From: an uncultured Candidatus Saccharibacteria bacterium | GTDB lineage: Bacteria; Patescibacteriota; UBA1384; XYA2-FULL-43-10; 1-14-0-10-43-13 | NCBI GenBank assembly: GCA_964543385.1 | Contig: CAZIYE010000001.1 | Coordinates: forward strand, 639,274-671,273 | DNA: 32,000 nucleotides | Direction of reading: 5' to 3' | In this document: in pieces, positions 1,434 to 6,802 of the stretch | Layout of the letters: each line of letters opens with the position of its first letter | How positions within the stretch are numbered: the stretch's first letter is position 1 | The notes under the pieces: generated by a model | What the model was told of the DNA's origin: nothing | Databases searched by the model: none | The model's input: only the letters and a program-made list of their open reading frames with translations | Position numbers and translations under genes: made by a program

Positions 1434-1683
1434 TTTTCTCCTTAAACCGTCAATAGAGTGATTAGAGTTTAAATTTGAACACTAGTCAGTAAATGTATGC
1501 TAAGTATTTGTTATTCATCTCTGAATATGTTATTACAAAGTTAATCGGTTTTAATACTCCTGTCCTGCCCTTGGGGTACAATAAAAGGAATCCGATCTCG
1601 AAAATCAAGGGCCCCAAACTATTCATAATCCCTTATGGGAGGTCGGGTTGAATAGTCTATCAATCTAACATCTTTGGAGAGTT

Positions 1684-1887
1684 ATGGACGACAAAGAATT
1701 CAACAAAGCCTTCGATGAAGCTACAAAGAAGAAAATGCTTGAGGAGCCAGACATCTGGTGGAAACCACGAAGACACAGATGGGATGAATGGGGCTCGCCG
1801 GTAGGATTGTCTCTCGGTTGGACACTATTTATAGTTCCACTTGGCGTTTTCCTTTGGCTACTTCATCTTGCTGGACTCATAGGCTAG
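1684..1887 (+). CDS. Small hypothetical membrane protein (67 aa)
   Basis: GGAG lies 4 nt before the ATG. Charged N-terminus, then hydrophobic LSLGWTLFIVPLGVFLWLLHLAGLIG. A perfect terminator palindrome follows immediately. Confidence 0.6.
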   Translation: MDDKEFNKAFDEATKKKMLEEPDIWWKPRRHRWDEWGSPVGLSLGWTLFIVPLGVFLWLLHLAGLIG

Positions 1888-1893
1888 AAACAT

Positions 1894-1928
1894 AAAATCG
1901 TCCCGATATATATCGGGACGATTTTATT
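1894..1928 (+). terminator. Rho-independent terminator
   Basis: Perfect 32-nt palindrome aaaatcgtcccgatat/atatcgggacgatttt followed by T-rich sequence. Confidence 0.85.
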
Positions 1929-1952
1929 AGGTAGTGCTCCAGAATTATCAGT

Positions 1953-1981
1953 TTGACTTTTTTCTTATTATCTGTTATTAT
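1953..1981 (+). promoter_or_regulatory. sigma70-type promoter upstream of csp (TTGACT-N17-TATTAT)
   Basis: Hexamers and 17-nt spacing read directly. This leaves a leader of about 80 nt, as is usual for cold-shock genes. Confidence 0.5.
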
Positions 1982-2061
1982 CAAATAGAATAATTTTGGG
2001 AAAATAGTCGATTTTCTCGGATAGATTTAATTTGATAACAACATAAACAATCATAAACACT

Positions 2062-2259
2062 ATGACAGGTACAATCAAAAAATTGACAGACAAGGGCTTT
2101 GGCTTTATTACTTCTCCAGAGTTGGGAAAAGATTTATTTTTTCACAAAAACTCTTGTGTAGATAATTTTGACACTTTCGCCGAAGGAAACGAAGTTTCTT
2201 TTGAGTCGGAAGATTCTCCAAAAGGACTAAACGCAGTCAATGTTACATTGGTTAAATAA
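2062..2259 (+). CDS. Cold-shock domain protein (CspA family, 65 aa)
   Basis: RNP1-like KGFGFI and RNP2-like LFFH. Size and overall pattern are typical of the CSD family. Confidence 0.9.
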   Translation: MTGTIKKLTDKGFGFITSPELGKDLFFHKNSCVDNFDTFAEGNEVSFESEDSPKGLNAVNVTLVK

Positions 2260-2277
2260 CCGATATCCATTGTCCAA

Positions 2278-2312
2278 AAAAAACTCCTAGCATAAAAACT
2301 AGGAGTTTTTTG
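2278..2312. terminator. Rho-independent terminator after csp
   Basis: aaaaaactcctag / ctaggagtttttt stem flanked by an A-run and a T-run. Confidence 0.85.
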
Positions 2313-2333
2313 TATTGGATAAGTAATATTAAT

Positions 2334-2365
2334 TGGCTCTACACAACGGCCGAAGTTCGAGTTAT
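2334..2365. repeat. Copy D of the 32-nt motif TGGCTCT-N11-GAAGTTCGAG-TTAT
   Basis: Same 7+11+10+4 architecture as 4730-4761 and 5834-5865. It also sits just downstream of a terminator hairpin. Confidence 0.5.
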
Positions 2366-2403
2366 AATTAGTTGAATGCAATGAGATAGACAAAATAGAA
2401 ACT

Positions 2404-3393
2404 ATGAATAAAAAAAATTTTAGCAAGGGAGTAGAAGGACTTGTCGATCCAATAACTGTTGGGTCGCTTCATTTTATCCAACCGTTTAATCAGTTGTTGC
2501 CAAAGAAAATTCAGAAAAAAGTTGTTCAATCATCATCAAAAAAGACCTCCTATATGGGATTTGTAGTCGAACCATATAGCTTTTTTCTGTTTTACGAAAT
2601 TTCTGATTTAGAAAAAGCCACAAATTTATTGCCTGATGGTTTCAAAATGATAAAAACAAAAGTATTTGAGGAAGATGAGCCTAAATATTATTGCGTTTTT
2701 GGCTGTTTTCGGGCTCATACCAGTGCATTTTGGGGTGTGAGAGCAGAATTTTACATTATTGCAGAAGATAAGCAAACTGGATTACTGAGCTGGATAATAG
2801 TTGACTATGATACTAATACTATTAGTTATGACAGCGGGAATGGATTGCGCTCGCCCAATAGCAGCCGTGCCGTTGTAACAATTAATCATCGCGGAATGCT
2901 TTTTGTTGATATTAAAAGAGACGACGATAACAGAGAGCTGGTTTGCGACGCAAATATCGAAAAAGGTGAGATGACGAAGCTTGACCAAAGGTTGTGGCTG
3001 GAGGGAAATCTCTCGATTGGATATGGTCGTGTTTTGTCAGAAAATGATGCCGATATTTTTTCTCTTAAGTTTGAGCCACTTGAGGTTGAGAAAGCGTTGA
3101 AAATCCCAACTGATAGTTTGGAGATCGAATCGAATACTTGGTATCCTGGATTATTTAAATCATTACCCTCGCAGATAGTTTGCTTTCCTTATGCACAGCA
3201 TTTCGTTTCTGATAGTCCGGGGCATTCCAGTAATCTTAAAAACAGAGACGAACTAATCGCAGCTGAGGAGAATATAGATTTCTCTAAGTTAGAAGTTTTC
3301 TCTACCAAGTCATTCAAGGTAATGTTTATAGTCGGATCGATAGTATCTTTTCTTGTCACCATGACTTTTTTCCTTCTCTGGTTGCTCAAATAA
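2404..3393 (+). CDS. Hypothetical protein with C-terminal TM anchor (329 aa); possible acetoacetate-decarboxylase-like/DUF2071-like fold
   Basis: Long ORF with C-terminal hydrophobic FKVMFIVGSIVSFLVTMTFFLLWLL. The stretch LLPDGFKM...YYCVFGCFRAHTSAFWGVRAEFYIIAED recalls ADC-like/DUF2071 proteins; that fold call is weak. Confidence 0.55.
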   Translation: MNKKNFSKGVEGLVDPITVGSLHFIQPFNQLLPKKIQKKVVQSSSKKTSYMGFVVEPYSFFLFYEISDLEKATNLLPDGFKMIKTKVFEEDEPKYYCVFGCFRAHTSAFWGVRAEFYIIAEDKQTGLLSWIIVDYDTNTISYDSGNGLRSPNSSRAVVTINHRGMLFVDIKRDDDNRELVCDANIEKGEMTKLDQRLWLEGNLSIGYGRVLSENDADIFSLKFEPLEVEKALKIPTDSLEIESNTWYPGLFKSLPSQIVCFPYAQHFVSDSPGHSSNLKNRDELIAAEENIDFSKLEVFSTKSFKVMFIVGSIVSFLVTMTFFLLWLLK

Positions 3394-3622
3394 TTTGGCC
3401 AGTGTTTGGACCAAAAAAGGCCATCTGGGGATCAGTATTTTTATGTCTCTACACCGTGTTAGAAGTTGGAACTAGTTCTCAGCTGGCAATCGAATGAATA
3501 TCAACTAAAAGGCTTAAAAGTGAGAATAATAGTATTAAATATCAGCAAAATCTCAGTCTGTTTTTTTTGCATATTCGTGTTAGCATGTTGTTATGATATT
3601 AGGAAATTAAAAGGAGTCGAAA

Positions 3623-4546
3623 ATGGAATTGACAAGTTCAACTATTGAACCAAAAAAGAACTCAGGTCTCATCAAAATGATCATTCTTATCGCAGCCGGA
3701 GTTTTGGTCTTGGGGAGTGTTTCATCCGTCGGTGCAGCGTATTATCAGTCTAATAAATTGATAAAAGAAGGGGATTCATTTAAAAATAATGGTGAATATT
3801 CTGCGGCCGCATCCAAATATGATCAAGCCATCAAAAAATGGAAAATGAATGAGTCTAAGGTCTCCACAAAAGTTGATGAGACAAAAACATTAATAAGCGA
3901 ACAGGAAAAATATGACTTGGGTGAGATTGCATACCAAAGACAAGATTGGCAAAATTGTAGCGATGAACTAAAGAAAGTATCCCCAGTTCACAAGAATTAT
4001 AGTTCAGCTCTTTCTCACTCGCAAATCTGTCAGCAAAAGATGCAAGAAGAAGTCGATTTAGCTGCTAAAACCAAAGCAGATTTGGATGCTAAAACTGCCA
4101 CCGACGCACAAATTGCTGCTGATGCTAAAGCCAAAGCTGATACTGCAGCCGCTAAAAAAGTCGCTGAAGCGAAAGCCAAGGCTGCTGAAGACGCCATAAT
4201 TCCAACTCCGATCGATATTGTCATCACGGCGCTCGACAGTGACAATAATAATAAGGTTATGGGCATTTACGAAGCACCAGCTGGTACCCCTGGTGCTGTC
4301 TATAATGGATATTACGAATTTGGTATCCCATTAAATAAATTTAAACTTACATACCCTTCTGTTTCTGGAGCGGTATCAGCCAGAGGTATTTTAGAAGAAG
4401 GTGCATCCACAATCACTGATTTGGGTGATCTAAATTTGCAATTTAACGATGCTAAAATCGGTCTTAATGTTATCAGAGTTGAGGTTTTAAATTCAAAAGG
4501 CCAAATTATTGCTACTGGTAAAACAAGAATTGTTCGATATCCATAA
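3623..4546 (+). CDS. N-terminally anchored hypothetical protein with Ala/Lys-rich low-complexity linker (307 aa)
   Basis: AAGGAG lies 6 nt before the ATG. TM IKMIILIAAGVLVLGSVSSVGAAYY, then an AKTKADLDAKTATDAQIAADAKAKADTAAAKK linker and a C-terminal beta-rich domain. Confidence 0.7.
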   Translation: MELTSSTIEPKKNSGLIKMIILIAAGVLVLGSVSSVGAAYYQSNKLIKEGDSFKNNGEYSAAASKYDQAIKKWKMNESKVSTKVDETKTLISEQEKYDLGEIAYQRQDWQNCSDELKKVSPVHKNYSSALSHSQICQQKMQEEVDLAAKTKADLDAKTATDAQIAADAKAKADTAAAKKVAEAKAKAAEDAIIPTPIDIVITALDSDNNNKVMGIYEAPAGTPGAVYNGYYEFGIPLNKFKLTYPSVSGAVSARGILEEGASTITDLGDLNLQFNDAKIGLNVIRVEVLNSKGQIIATGKTRIVRYP

Positions 4547-4667
4547 GCGACTCATTGACGAATCACTTATCGGTATAATTGCTTTTTGTAATCTTATACC
4601 TGAAATTTTGATATAGCATTTTAAAATATTTCGCATACAGTTAGTTGCAGAAAACCCTAATTAATAT

Positions 4668-4761
4668 ATGTTCAAGTCCGTTGATCCATACAAAAAATAA
4701 AATAACTAGTCCTAGACTAGTTATTTCTATGGATCTGTGTAGTTGCAGAAGTTCGAGCTAT
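4668..4761. repeat. Module A: T-arm-like motif (GTTCAAGTCC) + terminator hairpin (4700-4726) + TGGATCT-N11-GAAGTTCGAG-CTAT
   Basis: Hairpin aaataactagtc-cta-gactagttattt is nearly identical to those at 5803-5831 and 6345-6375. An 11-nt direct repeat TAGTTGCAGAA (4642-4652 and 4740-4750) brackets the left part. Confidence 0.7.
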
Positions 4762-4823
4762 TTCTTGAGTATCGCAACTTTACCATATCTCAAATTGTGA
4801 GTTCCTGACAGGACCACTTCCAA

Positions 4824-5702
4824 TCACACATGAGGTGTTTCTTTTATCTCTGAATAAGACAATGTCTCTGGCCAAATCATATTTCCGTCCAAATCATAGA
4901 CAGGTAGGCATTTTTCTGGACTTACTGTCGCTAAATGTTTCATGGTGTCAATTACTTCATTAACAGTTAAATCACTGCGAACATCTACGACAATACCCTT
5001 AAATTTCCCTTGACTAATCCTGAACGGAGTCGAAAAACCCGTTCCTTGATCTGTTTGATGATTGGAGTTGCTTTGCGGATCGAATCCGTTTTTGAGCTTC
5101 TGAAAATAATATGATGATTTCCCTCTGTCTGACTCTGAAGAAAAAGTGTTCATTACTTTAAAATCTGGCCTGCCAACTTCTTTAATACCGCTTAATGTTC
5201 CTGGCGGCAACTCCCTGTGTTTGCTTATATCCAAAATTAGAGTGGCAGTATAATTTGCCATGTGTGTCTGTTTTATTTGCAAAGGCCCTTTTATGCCAGA
5301 TATTCTTCCAACAATATTAAACCAAACTCGGTTTCCGGGGATATCCCATTCTCTGGCACTTTTAGCCCAACCTGTAGCAAGGGCTTCTCTTCTTAATTCA
5401 AACGATGGATTGTTCTTCATTCTTTCTGGGGTACCCTTATTGCCCAATAGACCCATGTTTAAAATTTCCTGAAGCCTATCTCTTTCGACACCGTTACGAA
5501 TTGAAGTAAAAGCAGTCCCGTACTCATCTATATCGCATAGTTTTGACATAATCAAATCTTTGACTTCAGGACTCAGATTCAATTCTGGATTGACGGCATT
5601 ATCCTCTTGGTTAGACTCGGTAGATAGTTTTGAAGCCTCCATGCGTTGCATTTCAGCCAAGGCTTCTGGCGGCAAATAACTTAATTCTTCATCCATTTGC
5701 AT
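4824..5702 (-). CDS. Hypothetical protein (292 aa), no recognisable motif
   Basis: Long uninterrupted ORF between repeat modules A and B. No family recognised from the sequence. Confidence 0.6.
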   Translation of the reverse strand: MQMDEELSYLPPEALAEMQRMEASKLSTESNQEDNAVNPELNLSPEVKDLIMSKLCDIDEYGTAFTSIRNGVERDRLQEILNMGLLGNKGTPERMKNNPSFELRREALATGWAKSAREWDIPGNRVWFNIVGRISGIKGPLQIKQTHMANYTATLILDISKHRELPPGTLSGIKEVGRPDFKVMNTFSSESDRGKSSYYFQKLKNGFDPQSNSNHQTDQGTGFSTPFRISQGKFKGIVVDVRSDLTVNEVIDTMKHLATVSPEKCLPVYDLDGNMIWPETLSYSEIKETPHV

Positions 5703-5774
5703 ACCTAATTTATTTACAAATTTGTATTATCTTATTCAAAGAATTCTGGCCAAATATTACCACAATTACACAGT

Positions 5775-5865
5775 CAGTTCGAGTCCAAAGTGGAGGAAAC
5801 AAAAAATAACTAGTCCTAGACTAGTTATTTTCATGGCTCTGCACAGTGAACGAAGTTCGAGCTAT
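5775..5865. repeat. Module B: CAGTTCGAGTCCA + terminator hairpin (5803-5831) + TGGCTCT-N11-GAAGTTCGAG-CTAT
   Basis: The 13-mer CAGTTCGAGTCCA is identical to 6318-6330 and lies at the same 24-nt offset from ACAAAAAATAACTAGTC. The right end contains the NUDIX stop codon. Confidence 0.7.
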
Positions 5866-6272
5866 TGTAGCTTGATTTTTCTATCCAATACCATTTCAAA
5901 GAAAGTTTTGGTGGCTGTTTTCAATGGGAGATCCATTATTTCTTTTAGTGAGAACCAACCGAATGATGATGCTTCGTTCTTATCTAAAACAACTTTTTCA
6001 TCTTTAATTAACTCTGCTTGCCAAAATGAGAGACTTTTTACTTTATAGTCTGCAGGAAGGGTGATTAGTTTGTTCAAAGATTTTACTCTTAGTCGTGTCT
6101 CTTCAAAGACTTCTCTTTCAACTGATTCTGTTTCATCTTTGTCTAGTGAATTTATCCTTCCGTGGGGAGGAGACCACAATCCAGTCGATGGCTTTCGATT
6201 ATCCTCTAAAAGCAATATTTTGTTGTCAGGGTTCTTGATGATTACTACAACTCCATGTTCTGTTGAATCCAT
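5862..6272 (-). CDS. NUDIX hydrolase (136 aa)
   Basis: Nudix-box-like GRINSLDKDETESVEREVFEETRLRV. AAGGAG lies upstream of the ATG. Confidence 0.8.
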   Translation of the reverse strand: MDSTEHGVVVIIKNPDNKILLLEDNRKPSTGLWSPPHGRINSLDKDETESVEREVFEETRLRVKSLNKLITLPADYKVKSLSFWQAELIKDEKVVLDKNEASSFGWFSLKEIMDLPLKTATKTFFEMVLDRKIKLQ

Positions 6273-6317
6273 TATCTCCTTTACATTAATAAATTAATCT
6301 TATCAATTTAGGGCGAC

Positions 6318-6377
6318 CAGTTCGAGTCCAGTCTGATTTATACAAAAAATAACTAGTCTAGGACTAATTATTTTTAT
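6318..6377. repeat. Module C: CAGTTCGAGTCCA + terminator hairpin (6345-6375) abutting the 3' end of tRNA-Asn
   Basis: Same left flank and hairpin arms as A and B. The loop is inverted (TAG versus CTA) and there is one arm mismatch. The right flank is the genuine tRNA-Asn CCA end. Confidence 0.7.
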
Positions 6378-6452
6378 TGGCTCCCTGAGCTGGACTCGAA
6401 CCAGCAACATCTTCGTTAACAGCGAAGCGCTCTGCCATTGAGCTATCAGGGA
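6378..6452 (-). tRNA. tRNA-Asn (anticodon GTT), CCA encoded
   Basis: Hand fold of the reverse complement: acceptor TCCCTGA/TCAGGGA, D-loop CAATGGCA, anticodon stem CTTCG/CGAAG with loop CTGTTAA, T-arm GCTGG-TTCGAGT-CCAGC, discriminator G, CCA. 75 nt. Confidence 0.9.
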
Positions 6453-6769
6453 ATAAATTGTTATTTTTCAAACAATGTTTTGATAAAATTTCTGCCAGCG
6501 TGGGATTTTAAATATTTTTCTCTTCCCAACGCTTCTTTTCTATTATCAAATCTTTCAGTATAAAAAATTTTCCATGGCTTGTATTTTCTGCTGAAATGAT
6601 TCGATCCAGAATTGTGTTCAAGTAATCTTTTTTCAAGGTTATCAGTTACTCCAGTATAAGTCTTTGGCGATTTTTCACTGATTAGAATATAGATATAACT
6701 ATCTGCCATTGCCCGTCCTTGCTGATTAATCAGCCAAGGCCGAGGTCTCGGCTCGCTTCGCGAGTCGGA
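6453..6769 (-). mobile_element. Putative ~320-nt GIY-YIG mini-insertion in the tRNA-Asn 5' region
   Basis: Bounded by the direct 12-nt repeat TCCCTGATAGCT (tRNA nt 1-12). Carries its own structured leader/SD and the nuclease ORF. Mobility is inferred, not shown. Confidence 0.4.
6461..6709 (-). CDS. Small GIY-YIG nuclease superfamily protein (UPF0213/YhbQ-like, 82 aa)
   Basis: YIYILISEKSPKTYTGVTDNLEKRLLEHNSG...PWKIFYTERFDNRKEALGREKYLK fits the GIY-YIG pattern. AAGGA lies 6 nt upstream of the ATG. The stop is 8 nt before tRNA-Asn. Confidence 0.85.
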   Translation of the reverse strand: MADSYIYILISEKSPKTYTGVTDNLEKRLLEHNSGSNHFSRKYKPWKIFYTERFDNRKEALGREKYLKSHAGRNFIKTLFEK

Positions 6770-6781
6770 AGCTATCAGGGA
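6702..6781 (-). repeat. Split duplicate of tRNA-Asn nt 1-12 (6781->6770) and nt 13-22 (6711->6702), separated by a 58-nt GC-rich triple-hairpin insert (6712-6769)
   Basis: AGCTATCAGGGA occurs at 6770-6781 and 6441-6452; TCTGCCATTG occurs at 6702-6711 and 6431-6440. Insert hairpins: ctcgc-ttc-gcgag, gccgag-gt-ctcggc, ccttg(c)tgatt/aatcag(c)caagg. Confidence 0.8.
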
Positions 6782-6802
6782 AAATGTATTTTTCTAATAG
6801 CA

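Follow-up and report, generated by a model that had tools for sequence, protein, structure and literature searches.

In Prochlorococcus, tycheposon islands grow by successive tRNA-linked integrations, and intact elements are much rarer than the islands themselves (bioRxiv 10.1101/2020.12.28.424599). Serine integrases recognize partner sites that differ in a regular way, the zinc-ribbon motif being found at positions 16-24 in attP and at positions 11-19 in attB (Rutherford et al., PMC3783163). Here we describe an array of small gene cassettes beside the tRNA-Asn(GTT) gene of an uncultured Candidatus Saccharibacteria bacterium (G000; 902,808 bp, 38% G+C, four contigs), contained in a stretch of 32,000 nucleotides (C1:639274-671273) that we refer to as the window. 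The usual view of bacteria with such small genomes is that they can spare little space for accessory DNA, and descriptions of their mobile elements are scant. The locus is a tRNA-linked integration hotspot; as a genomic island it is of an ordinary kind, and its host is a tiny-genome (candidate phyla radiation-like) bacterium. The variable part of the locus lies at window positions 1930-6377, between a conserved gene for a tiny membrane protein and tRNA-Asn, and from the comparisons set out below it probably arose by repeated integration of elements encoding a large serine recombinase (LSR) at the 3′ tip of tRNA-Asn, with the repeated modules as attL-type scars and the genes as leftover cargo.

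From 2334 to 6377 the order is motif D, open reading frame (ORF) 329, motif E, ORF307, module A, ORF292, module B, a NUDIX hydrolase gene and module C, with the tRNA gene next; by base composition the island shows no anomaly. Three near-identical hairpins mark the modules, as the initial annotation had described, including the inverted loop of the third. The arms of the first two (4700-4711/4715-4726 and 5803-5815/5819-5831) pair perfectly, and the third (6345-6375) has one mismatch and a reversed loop, TAG versus CTA. Upstream of each hairpin is an inverted T-arm-like block: CAGTTCGAGTCCA begins at 5775 and at 6318, in both cases 24 nt upstream of ACAAAAAATAAC, and module A has GTTCAAGTCC at 4670. 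The positions and spacing of these blocks had also been read correctly, as had the placement of NUDIX (5862-6272) and of the ORF at 4824-5702 (ORF292) between modules. Modules B and C have an identical 13-nt T-arm-like block and an identical hairpin, and the 11 nt between block and hairpin are unrelated. The block repeats, in inverted orientation, the T-loop of the adjoining tRNA (GTTCGAGTCC at Asn, TTCGATTCC at Trp); in module A it is GTTCAAGTCC, of the tRNA-Ala(GGC) type. Behind tRNA-Asn the inverted block is kept in other families too, beside different hairpins.

Immediately beyond hairpins A and B lies a 32-nt motif (4730-4761 and 5834-5865), of which another copy is present at 2334-2365. 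All three copies had been recognized previously; a further weak copy, a decayed fifth module at 3444-3475 that came from the repeat finder, had been missed. The motif is a composite: its TGGCTC is the 6-nt end of the tRNA gene, and to this is joined an arm of 25 nt, RCRYAGT-N4-GAAGTTCGAGCTA, that we call Y. An alignment of 17 copies gives the consensus TGGCTCT, RCRYAGT, four free bases and GAAGTTCGAGCTA, within which GAAGTTCGA is near-invariant. The short repeats proposed to bracket modules A and B hold up only in part. The 11-nt direct repeat TAGTTGCAGAA is real (4642-4652 and 4740-4750), and is best read as a second Y arm that has been truncated, not as a target duplication; the truncated copy (4633-4652) has the variant GTAGTTGCAGAA in common with Y copies of a related genome, G022, and of a Logan contig, L176. 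As for the 6-nt repeat CACAGT, its right copy belongs to the Y consensus and the match on the left is expected by chance. Neither repeat is present in the homologous modules of other genomes.

A profile of the 32-nt motif finds only four copies in the entire 902,808-bp genome (37, 31, 31 and 13 bits), the next match scoring 10 bits, and the hairpin arm occurs only in the array and once directly after tRNA-Ala(GGC), at C1:49394, 595 kb away. The genome-wide search proposed in the initial annotation thus confines motif and hairpin to the array, apart from that one hairpin, and we regard both as a local feature and not as a dispersed repeat family. A DNA search of relatives finds clusters of hairpin and motif beside tRNA-Asn in several genera of the family (G010, G022, G008, G029, G014 and G017) and a comparable array beside tRNA-Trp in G002. 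A model built from the aligned copies matches 11 of the 44 genomes of the order, with one to four copies each, and nothing beyond one weak match in the other genomes sampled at the level of the class. Within each locus the copies are co-oriented relative to the tRNA, regardless of how the intervening genes are oriented. About half of them come after a hairpin of the TAACTAGTC type and the remainder after unrelated terminator hairpins, so the constant part of the module is the motif and not the hairpin.

Two of the relatives carry the same motif at the far end of an element with its own recombinase. Contig C5 of G008 has the terminator hairpin, TGGCTC and Y at positions 20-80 of the stretch L157, and ~8 kb further an LSR gene whose 537-aa product has Resolvase, Recombinase and Zn_ribbon_recom domains; the final ten codons of this gene consist of tRNA-Asn 3′-end sequence read in antisense, and the element has no other TGGCTC after a hairpin. 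L176 has the same layout, with an LSR 77% identical to that of G008 (537-539 aa for the pair), the last 14 codons of which overlap the tRNA-Asn 3′ end, and with two older motif copies farther out. The two elements are collinear over the whole stretch between Y and the LSR gene; the hairpin with TGGCTC and Y forms the far end of an ~8-kb element, and the LSR gene is its last gene. LSR genes of this order commonly end within tRNA 3′ ends.

Sister enzymes, 51-54% identical to the G008 LSR, sit on tRNA-Asp in the same way, and the tRNA-Asp loci have no match to the Asn motif. At one of these loci (L190) the far junction is made up of TGGCGGG, the tip of tRNA-Asp, and an arm identical to Y at 14 of 21 positions, with an older scar beyond; at the tRNA-Trp array of G002 the junction is TGGCAG followed by a Y-like arm. 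The core therefore tracks the target (TGGCTC at tRNA-Asn, TGGCGGG at tRNA-Asp and TGGCAG at tRNA-Trp, with one example each for Asp and Trp). A junction whose first six or seven bases depend on the target and whose remainder depends on the recombinase clade is as expected of a hybrid of host and element half-sites, and these parallel cases, one at each tRNA, add support to the link between Y and the recombinase.

The geometry of the sites points the same way. Counted from the tRNA tip, the T-loop has its TCGA at nt 19-22 in tRNA-Asn, tRNA-Asp and tRNA-Trp, and in the matching arms the corresponding block (TCGA in Y, TAGA in the Asp and Trp arms) is at nt 24-27, five bases further out, with the inner TGG/GGA unshifted between tRNA and arm; Y has its TTCGAG 5 bp farther from the core than the TCGAAC of the tRNA. 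When the centre is set between TGG and CTC of the core, GAAGTTCGA fills half-site positions 16-24. This 5-bp offset matches the published difference between attP and attB, a specific fit that we take as supporting evidence and not as proof, because the centre was chosen by us and the left half-sites have little symmetry. The recombinase family seems, by this alignment, to use universal T-loop DNA (TGGACTCGA in the tRNA) as its outer recognition block. Other placements were tried and rejected. A crossover at GTTCGAG instead of TGGCTC would strand the last 28 LSR codons in the chromosome, and Y-like words in the 3′ end of the G008 LSR gene are not conserved in L176 and are put down to coincidence. 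The T-arm-like block, though an exact mirror of the tRNA half-site, lies ~50 nt from the centre versus 11 and was dropped as the left half of attB; with the hairpin removed or extruded as a cruciform the block is still 4-10 nt off.

Comparison with two related loci shows that the modules are break points of synteny. A metagenome contig (L138) is 79% identical to window 5774-6452, which spans module B, NUDIX, module C and tRNA-Asn; the similarity is lost exactly at the left edge of module B (5774), and different genes lie beyond. L176 matches the window on either side of the island, at the leader and tiny membrane-protein gene (contig 1275-1698, window 1503-1929; 84.6%) and at the tRNA (window 6378-6475; 88%). 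Between these shared anchors are 4.4 kb in the window and 9.8 kb in L176, with only motif copies in common. The modules thus mark presence/absence differences in both comparisons, as had been anticipated. In the left anchor, the GC-rich leader before the tiny membrane-protein gene (window 1503-1683; L176 1275-1440) is ~85% conserved, paired blocks included.

The genes between the modules are sporadic. NUDIX has one distant homolog among the 43 other genomes of the order, ORF292 has homologs in two of them, and the genes of different arrays are mutually unrelated (aldo-keto reductase, 2-hydroxyacid dehydrogenase, HD domain, FecR and orphans). Both NUDIX and ORF292 point toward the arm and use the hairpin beyond it as terminator, and the first cargo genes of full elements do likewise.

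We propose that the island at 1930-6377 is the product of several site-specific integrations, all of them at the very 3′ end of the tRNA gene. Each module would then have three parts: a bidirectional terminator hairpin that formerly stood directly behind the tRNA (the chromosome-side, or B, flank), the terminal 6 nt of the tRNA gene, which read TGGCTC on the plus strand, and arm Y, the putative element-side half-site (P′) of the attachment site of an LSR-family integrative element. Modules A and B and motifs D and E would be attL-type junctions of separate events, module C would be the present junction of the terminator with the intact tRNA, and NUDIX, ORF292, ORF307 and ORF329 would be cargo remaining after loss of the rest of each element, the recombinase gene included. 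We infer that the window's own scars arose by an LSR reaction and that the crossover lies within TGGCTC. The new terminator beside the tRNA after each event may reflect deletions on the recombinase side, selected to keep the terminator of an essential single-copy tRNA. The synteny breaks, the sporadic cargo and the position of the motif at the far junction of LSR elements support the original suggestion of serial att-type scars that delimit accessory cassettes at a tRNA; what changes is the detail, in that the part relevant to recombination is the 32-nt motif and not the hairpin or the T-loop-like motif.

Several observations weigh against this proposal. No cognate LSR is present in the window or in the entire G000 genome (98.7% complete). 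The initial annotation had proposed looking for a recombinase elsewhere on the contig, and the cognate type proves to be an LSR that this genome lacks; because of this, the scars in G000 are relics without a resident enzyme. The two LSRs that G000 does encode are ~28% identical to the G008 type and both adjoin other tRNA ends, and its single tyrosine recombinase is 125 kb away. As far as known, serine integrases do not use attL-like sites without a directionality factor (PMC3783163), and because they do not reuse attL or attR, stacking needs an attB, with a host-type left flank, to be rebuilt after each event. Full elements carry the LSR gene, and no hairpin, at their tRNA-proximal end, whereas every cassette here ends in a hairpin. 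The occurrence of the identical hairpin after the distant tRNA-Ala(GGC) is a further difficulty, and the hairpin may travel with some element end. The inverted T-arm copy is a mirror image of the host half-site, yet for an LSR half-site its position is ~40 bp off; it could be an extension of the palindrome by template switching, or it could have another role. The link between Y and the LSR rests on two contigs that possibly share the element by descent, because the LSR genes of G008 and L176, at 76% nucleotide identity, have diverged about as much as a flanking housekeeping gene. The cassette nearest the tRNA is common to the window and L138, which differ distally, the opposite of a simple order with the newest insertion next to the tRNA; the cassette order is better accounted for by homologous recombination between modules of ~100 bp than by insertions in a strict sequence. 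Neither a circular form nor an empty site was seen: viral contigs contained no circular form of the element, contigs carrying the same flanking protein contained no empty site, and look-ups of the exact protein gave no alternative contexts.

The cassettes are regularly built, with one or two genes each and all ending in the same hairpin, and they could instead be small non-autonomous mobile units, circular when free, each composed of Y, a gene, and the T-arm-like motif plus hairpin, that are moved in trans by the LSR of a helper element. Each unit would bring a new terminator and restore a usable target, so that the array grows, in function a tRNA-anchored integron driven by a serine recombinase. 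The identity of T-arm-like block and hairpin in modules B and C around an unrelated 11 nt suggests function and not simple decay, the block is a mirror image of the tRNA-side half-site, and the proximal cassette is common to the window and L138 with different distal ones. The difficulties noted above over target rebuilding, the T-arm-like block, the recurring hairpin and the cassette order leave this reading some room, but we consider such units unlikely. They would require attL-like substrates without a directionality factor, which are not known for serine integrases (PMC3783163), and the mirror half-site is ~40 bp too distant from the core, a spacing that extrusion of the hairpin does not mend by manual count. 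No circular junction was seen, and we found no cassette in two positions or two genomes other than by apparent descent.

The hairpin and its T-arm-like flank might also be a mobile terminator, resembling a miniature inverted-repeat transposable element (MITE), that inserts itself behind tRNA 3′ ends, with the 32-nt motif as a separate feature. Terminators usually drift in sequence. The sequence of this hairpin is kept across at least five genera, and the same hairpin is found behind tRNA-Ala(GGC) in G000 and, in other genomes, behind fragments of tRNA-Trp, tRNA-Ala and a tmRNA-like 3′ end. We doubt this explanation strongly, since it leaves Y and the synteny breaks unexplained and about half of the Y copies come after unrelated hairpins. 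Only four copies are present in G000, which apart from the palindrome itself show neither terminal inverted repeats nor target duplications, and there is no transposase candidate: the genome has no match to the Y1 transposase family (PF01797), and its one tyrosine recombinase is far off. The initial annotation had offered a MITE-like terminator alongside att-type scars; as the main explanation it finds no support in four hairpin copies that form no genome-wide family, although for the hairpin itself, which recurs beside several tRNA ends, it keeps a small probability. Two narrower candidates were rejected, a dispersed MITE or repetitive extragenic palindrome (four hairpin and four motif copies, confined to two tRNA ends of the 0.9-Mb genome) and a hairpin-ended element of the IS200/IS605 type (no PF01797 match in G000).

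Least credible of all, and very improbable, is that the 32-nt motif is a regulatory or RNA element (promoter, operator or small RNA) or a tyrosine-recombinase site (attC-like or Xer/dif-module-like): copy D does give a promoter-like TACACA-17-TATAAT (2340-2368) 36 nt ahead of ORF329, two further Y copies preceding plus-strand genes likewise end in TATAAT, and a weak GCTC/GAGC dyad in the motif resembles the tRNA D-stem, but most copies have the 3′ end of a convergent gene in front of them, the core varies according to which tRNA is adjacent, unlike a promoter or operator, the variable 4 nt have no consistent covariation, the motif has no Rfam match, the two GTTCGAG blocks are direct and not inverted as in attC, and there is no integron integrase, the lone tyrosine recombinase being 125 kb away. 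Particular forms of these ideas were also set aside: a pseudo-tRNA 3′ end or an enlarged-loop D-arm (stems unpaired, and copy A without a compensating change), an RNA structure in Y (two 4-nt spacer variants that pair with different partners), a sigma-70 promoter in Y (which fits only the copies before plus-strand genes and is taken as secondary reuse), an attC-like fold of the whole module (a 13-versus-2-nt internal loop would be required), and an integron or attC array (no IntI-type enzyme, direct GTTCGAG blocks, and cassettes in both orientations).

Features of the variable island and its anchors in the window, with roles as proposed here
Feature	Window position	Strand	Evidence or remark
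Left chromosomal anchor: tiny membrane-protein gene and terminator (1895-1927)	1684..1927	+	L176 homology ends here and resumes at tRNA-Asn
csp gene (2062-2259) and bidirectional terminator hairpin (2278-2311); putative B-side flank of scar D	2062..2311	+	Pfam CSD, E=4e-16; inverted repeat I12
Putative scar D: tRNA-tip core TGGCTC and Y arm; also reused as promoter-like site for ORF329	2334..2365	+	Profile 30.9 bits; TACACA-17-TATAAT
Putative cargo, ORF329	2404..3393	+	Without family match
Putative scar E: decayed core and Y arm	3444..3475	+	66% identical to copy D (repeat finder, D2); 13.2 bits
Putative cargo, ORF307	3623..4546	+	Without family match
Truncated extra Y-arm copy, holding the left 11-nt repeat TAGTTGCAGAA	4633..4652	+	Direct sequence reading
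Inverted T-arm-like motif of module A, GTTCAAGTCC, tRNA-Ala(GGC) type	4670..4679	+	
Hairpin A, bidirectional intrinsic terminator, serving ORF292 on the minus strand	4699..4727	.	Inverted repeat I23; terminator scan
Putative scar A: core TGGATC and Y arm	4730..4761	+	31.0 bits; alignment A1
Putative cargo, ORF292, orphan	4824..5702	-	Without family match
Inverted T-arm-like motif of module B	5775..5787	+	
Hairpin B, bidirectional terminator; terminates NUDIX on the minus strand	5802..5832	.	Inverted repeat I16; terminator scan
Putative scar B: core TGGCTC and Y arm; last bases include the NUDIX stop codon	5834..5865	+	37.2 bits
Putative cargo, NUDIX hydrolase	5862..6272	-	Pfam PF00293, E=6e-13
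Inverted T-arm-like motif of module C	6318..6332	+	12 nt perfectly complementary to tRNA T-arm 6390-6401 (I24)
Hairpin C, present terminator of tRNA-Asn	6345..6375	.	
tRNA-Asn(GTT), predicted integration target and right anchor; last 6 nt GAGCCA = shared core	6378..6452	-	ARAGORN; Rfam 70 bits

Other remnants of tRNA genes are found at and around these loci. In the window, a GIY-YIG gene (6461-6709) has the intact tRNA-Asn on one side and, on the other, a duplicate of the first 12-13 nt of that tRNA (6773-6786); a GC-rich insert of ~55 nt comes after the duplicated start, and the start of the GIY-YIG ORF reuses the D-loop bases CAATGGCAGA. An entire second copy of tRNA-Asn, with the same kind of insert in its D-arm, is present in G037 (L005), and the pairing of GIY-YIG with tRNA-Asn is maintained in G023, G036, G005 and G037. 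Arrays of relatives (L011 at 8238, 9909 and 11694; L013 at 2747 and 3555; L010, from G009) contain pseudo-tRNA-Asn 3′ ends of 11-15 nt, one near-whole tRNA-Asn copy in which the T-arm is replaced by a GC-rich hairpin, and a recurrent ~60-nt unit made up of TGGCTCCCCGA, a GC hairpin and CAGGCTGG. These features suggest either further integrases whose crossover lies deeper within the tRNA or small insertions of GC hairpins. Two loci from different families (L002 of G023 and L014 of G029) have a degenerate second T-arm and acceptor end of tRNA-Asn ~150 nt downstream of the real tRNA, separated from it by a conserved segment of ~130 nt.

Further observations concern the recombinases and their elements. 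The LSR genes of G000 (C2:821-2540 and C3:52027-53589) each abut a tRNA 3′ end. On C2 a second copy of the final 20 nt of tRNA-Arg(TCG) lies 129 nt downstream, within the 3′ end of the annotated LSR ORF, and the two copies flank an insert of ~110 nt; on C3 the LSR ORF runs into a truncated tRNA at the end of the contig. One recombinase of relatives (L167, G017:C5; L179, G008:C10) ends in sequence resembling the 3′ end of a tmRNA-like gene, and in another genome that 3′ sequence comes after a hairpin of the TAACTAGT type. Two contigs of the G008 assembly start near-identically (C5:1-80 and C26:1-80), with hairpin, core and Y and three differences; C5 goes on to the 8-kb recombinase element and C26 to a three-cassette array ending in a tRNA-Asn-like gene. 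The pair represents either two variants of the population, at which the assembly forks, or two copies in tandem.

The locus shows an entry point for genes in a small genome, with a single tRNA tip collecting cargo, and the serine-recombinase elements that would stand behind this cargo are common to several families of the order. The proposed sites give a recombinase family testable attachment sequences (host half, element half and core), which may be of interest in the search for new serine integrases with predictable targets. For annotation, the scheme would account for puzzling conserved intergenic motifs and pseudo-tRNA ends.

Among described arrays of small gene units, integrons and integrase-less attC clusters are alike in being composed of mostly single-gene units with a repeated, structured and co-polar site, often with no integrase nearby. 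The array at tRNA-Asn differs in having no IntI-type tyrosine recombinase and in having direct blocks rather than inverted R″/R′ cores; its cassettes have their own promoters, stand in either orientation and are anchored on a tRNA gene. The plasmid dif-modules (pdif) of Acinetobacter are likewise small modules of one to a few genes between short recombination sites, with the enzyme encoded elsewhere, but those sites are 28-bp XerC/XerD sites (11-6-11) that alternate, whereas the sites here are co-oriented, unrelated in sequence and linked to a serine recombinase.

In the layout of the site itself, the closest counterparts are the LSR attachment sites of A118/LI, Bxb1 and phiC31 (PMC3783163), with which the elements described here have in common a half-site of ~25 bp, a recombinase gene directly beside attP, short identity between the partners, and an outer block of 9 conserved bp that occupies positions 16-24 in the element half and is 5 bp nearer the centre in the host half. 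Unlike those sites, the predicted target is a tRNA 3′ tip with T-loop DNA as the putative outer motif; related enzymes appear to have switched between tRNA-Asn, tRNA-Asp and possibly tRNA-Trp; and the recombinase ORF crosses the site, so that its last codons would differ between the integrated and the excised state.

As an island, the locus most resembles the tycheposon islands of Prochlorococcus. Both have a fixed site next to a tRNA gene at which newcomers push older elements inward, and both hold scattered degenerate remnants and partial tRNA repeats; in both, intact elements are far rarer than islands, and a minority of tycheposons also use large serine recombinases. Unlike the tycheposon islands, the repeat shared with the tRNA is here only 6-7 nt long and at the very tip, the host genome is 0.9 Mb, every intact element that we see has a serine and not a tyrosine recombinase, and most of the remnants consist of one gene, with a terminator hairpin closing each remnant.

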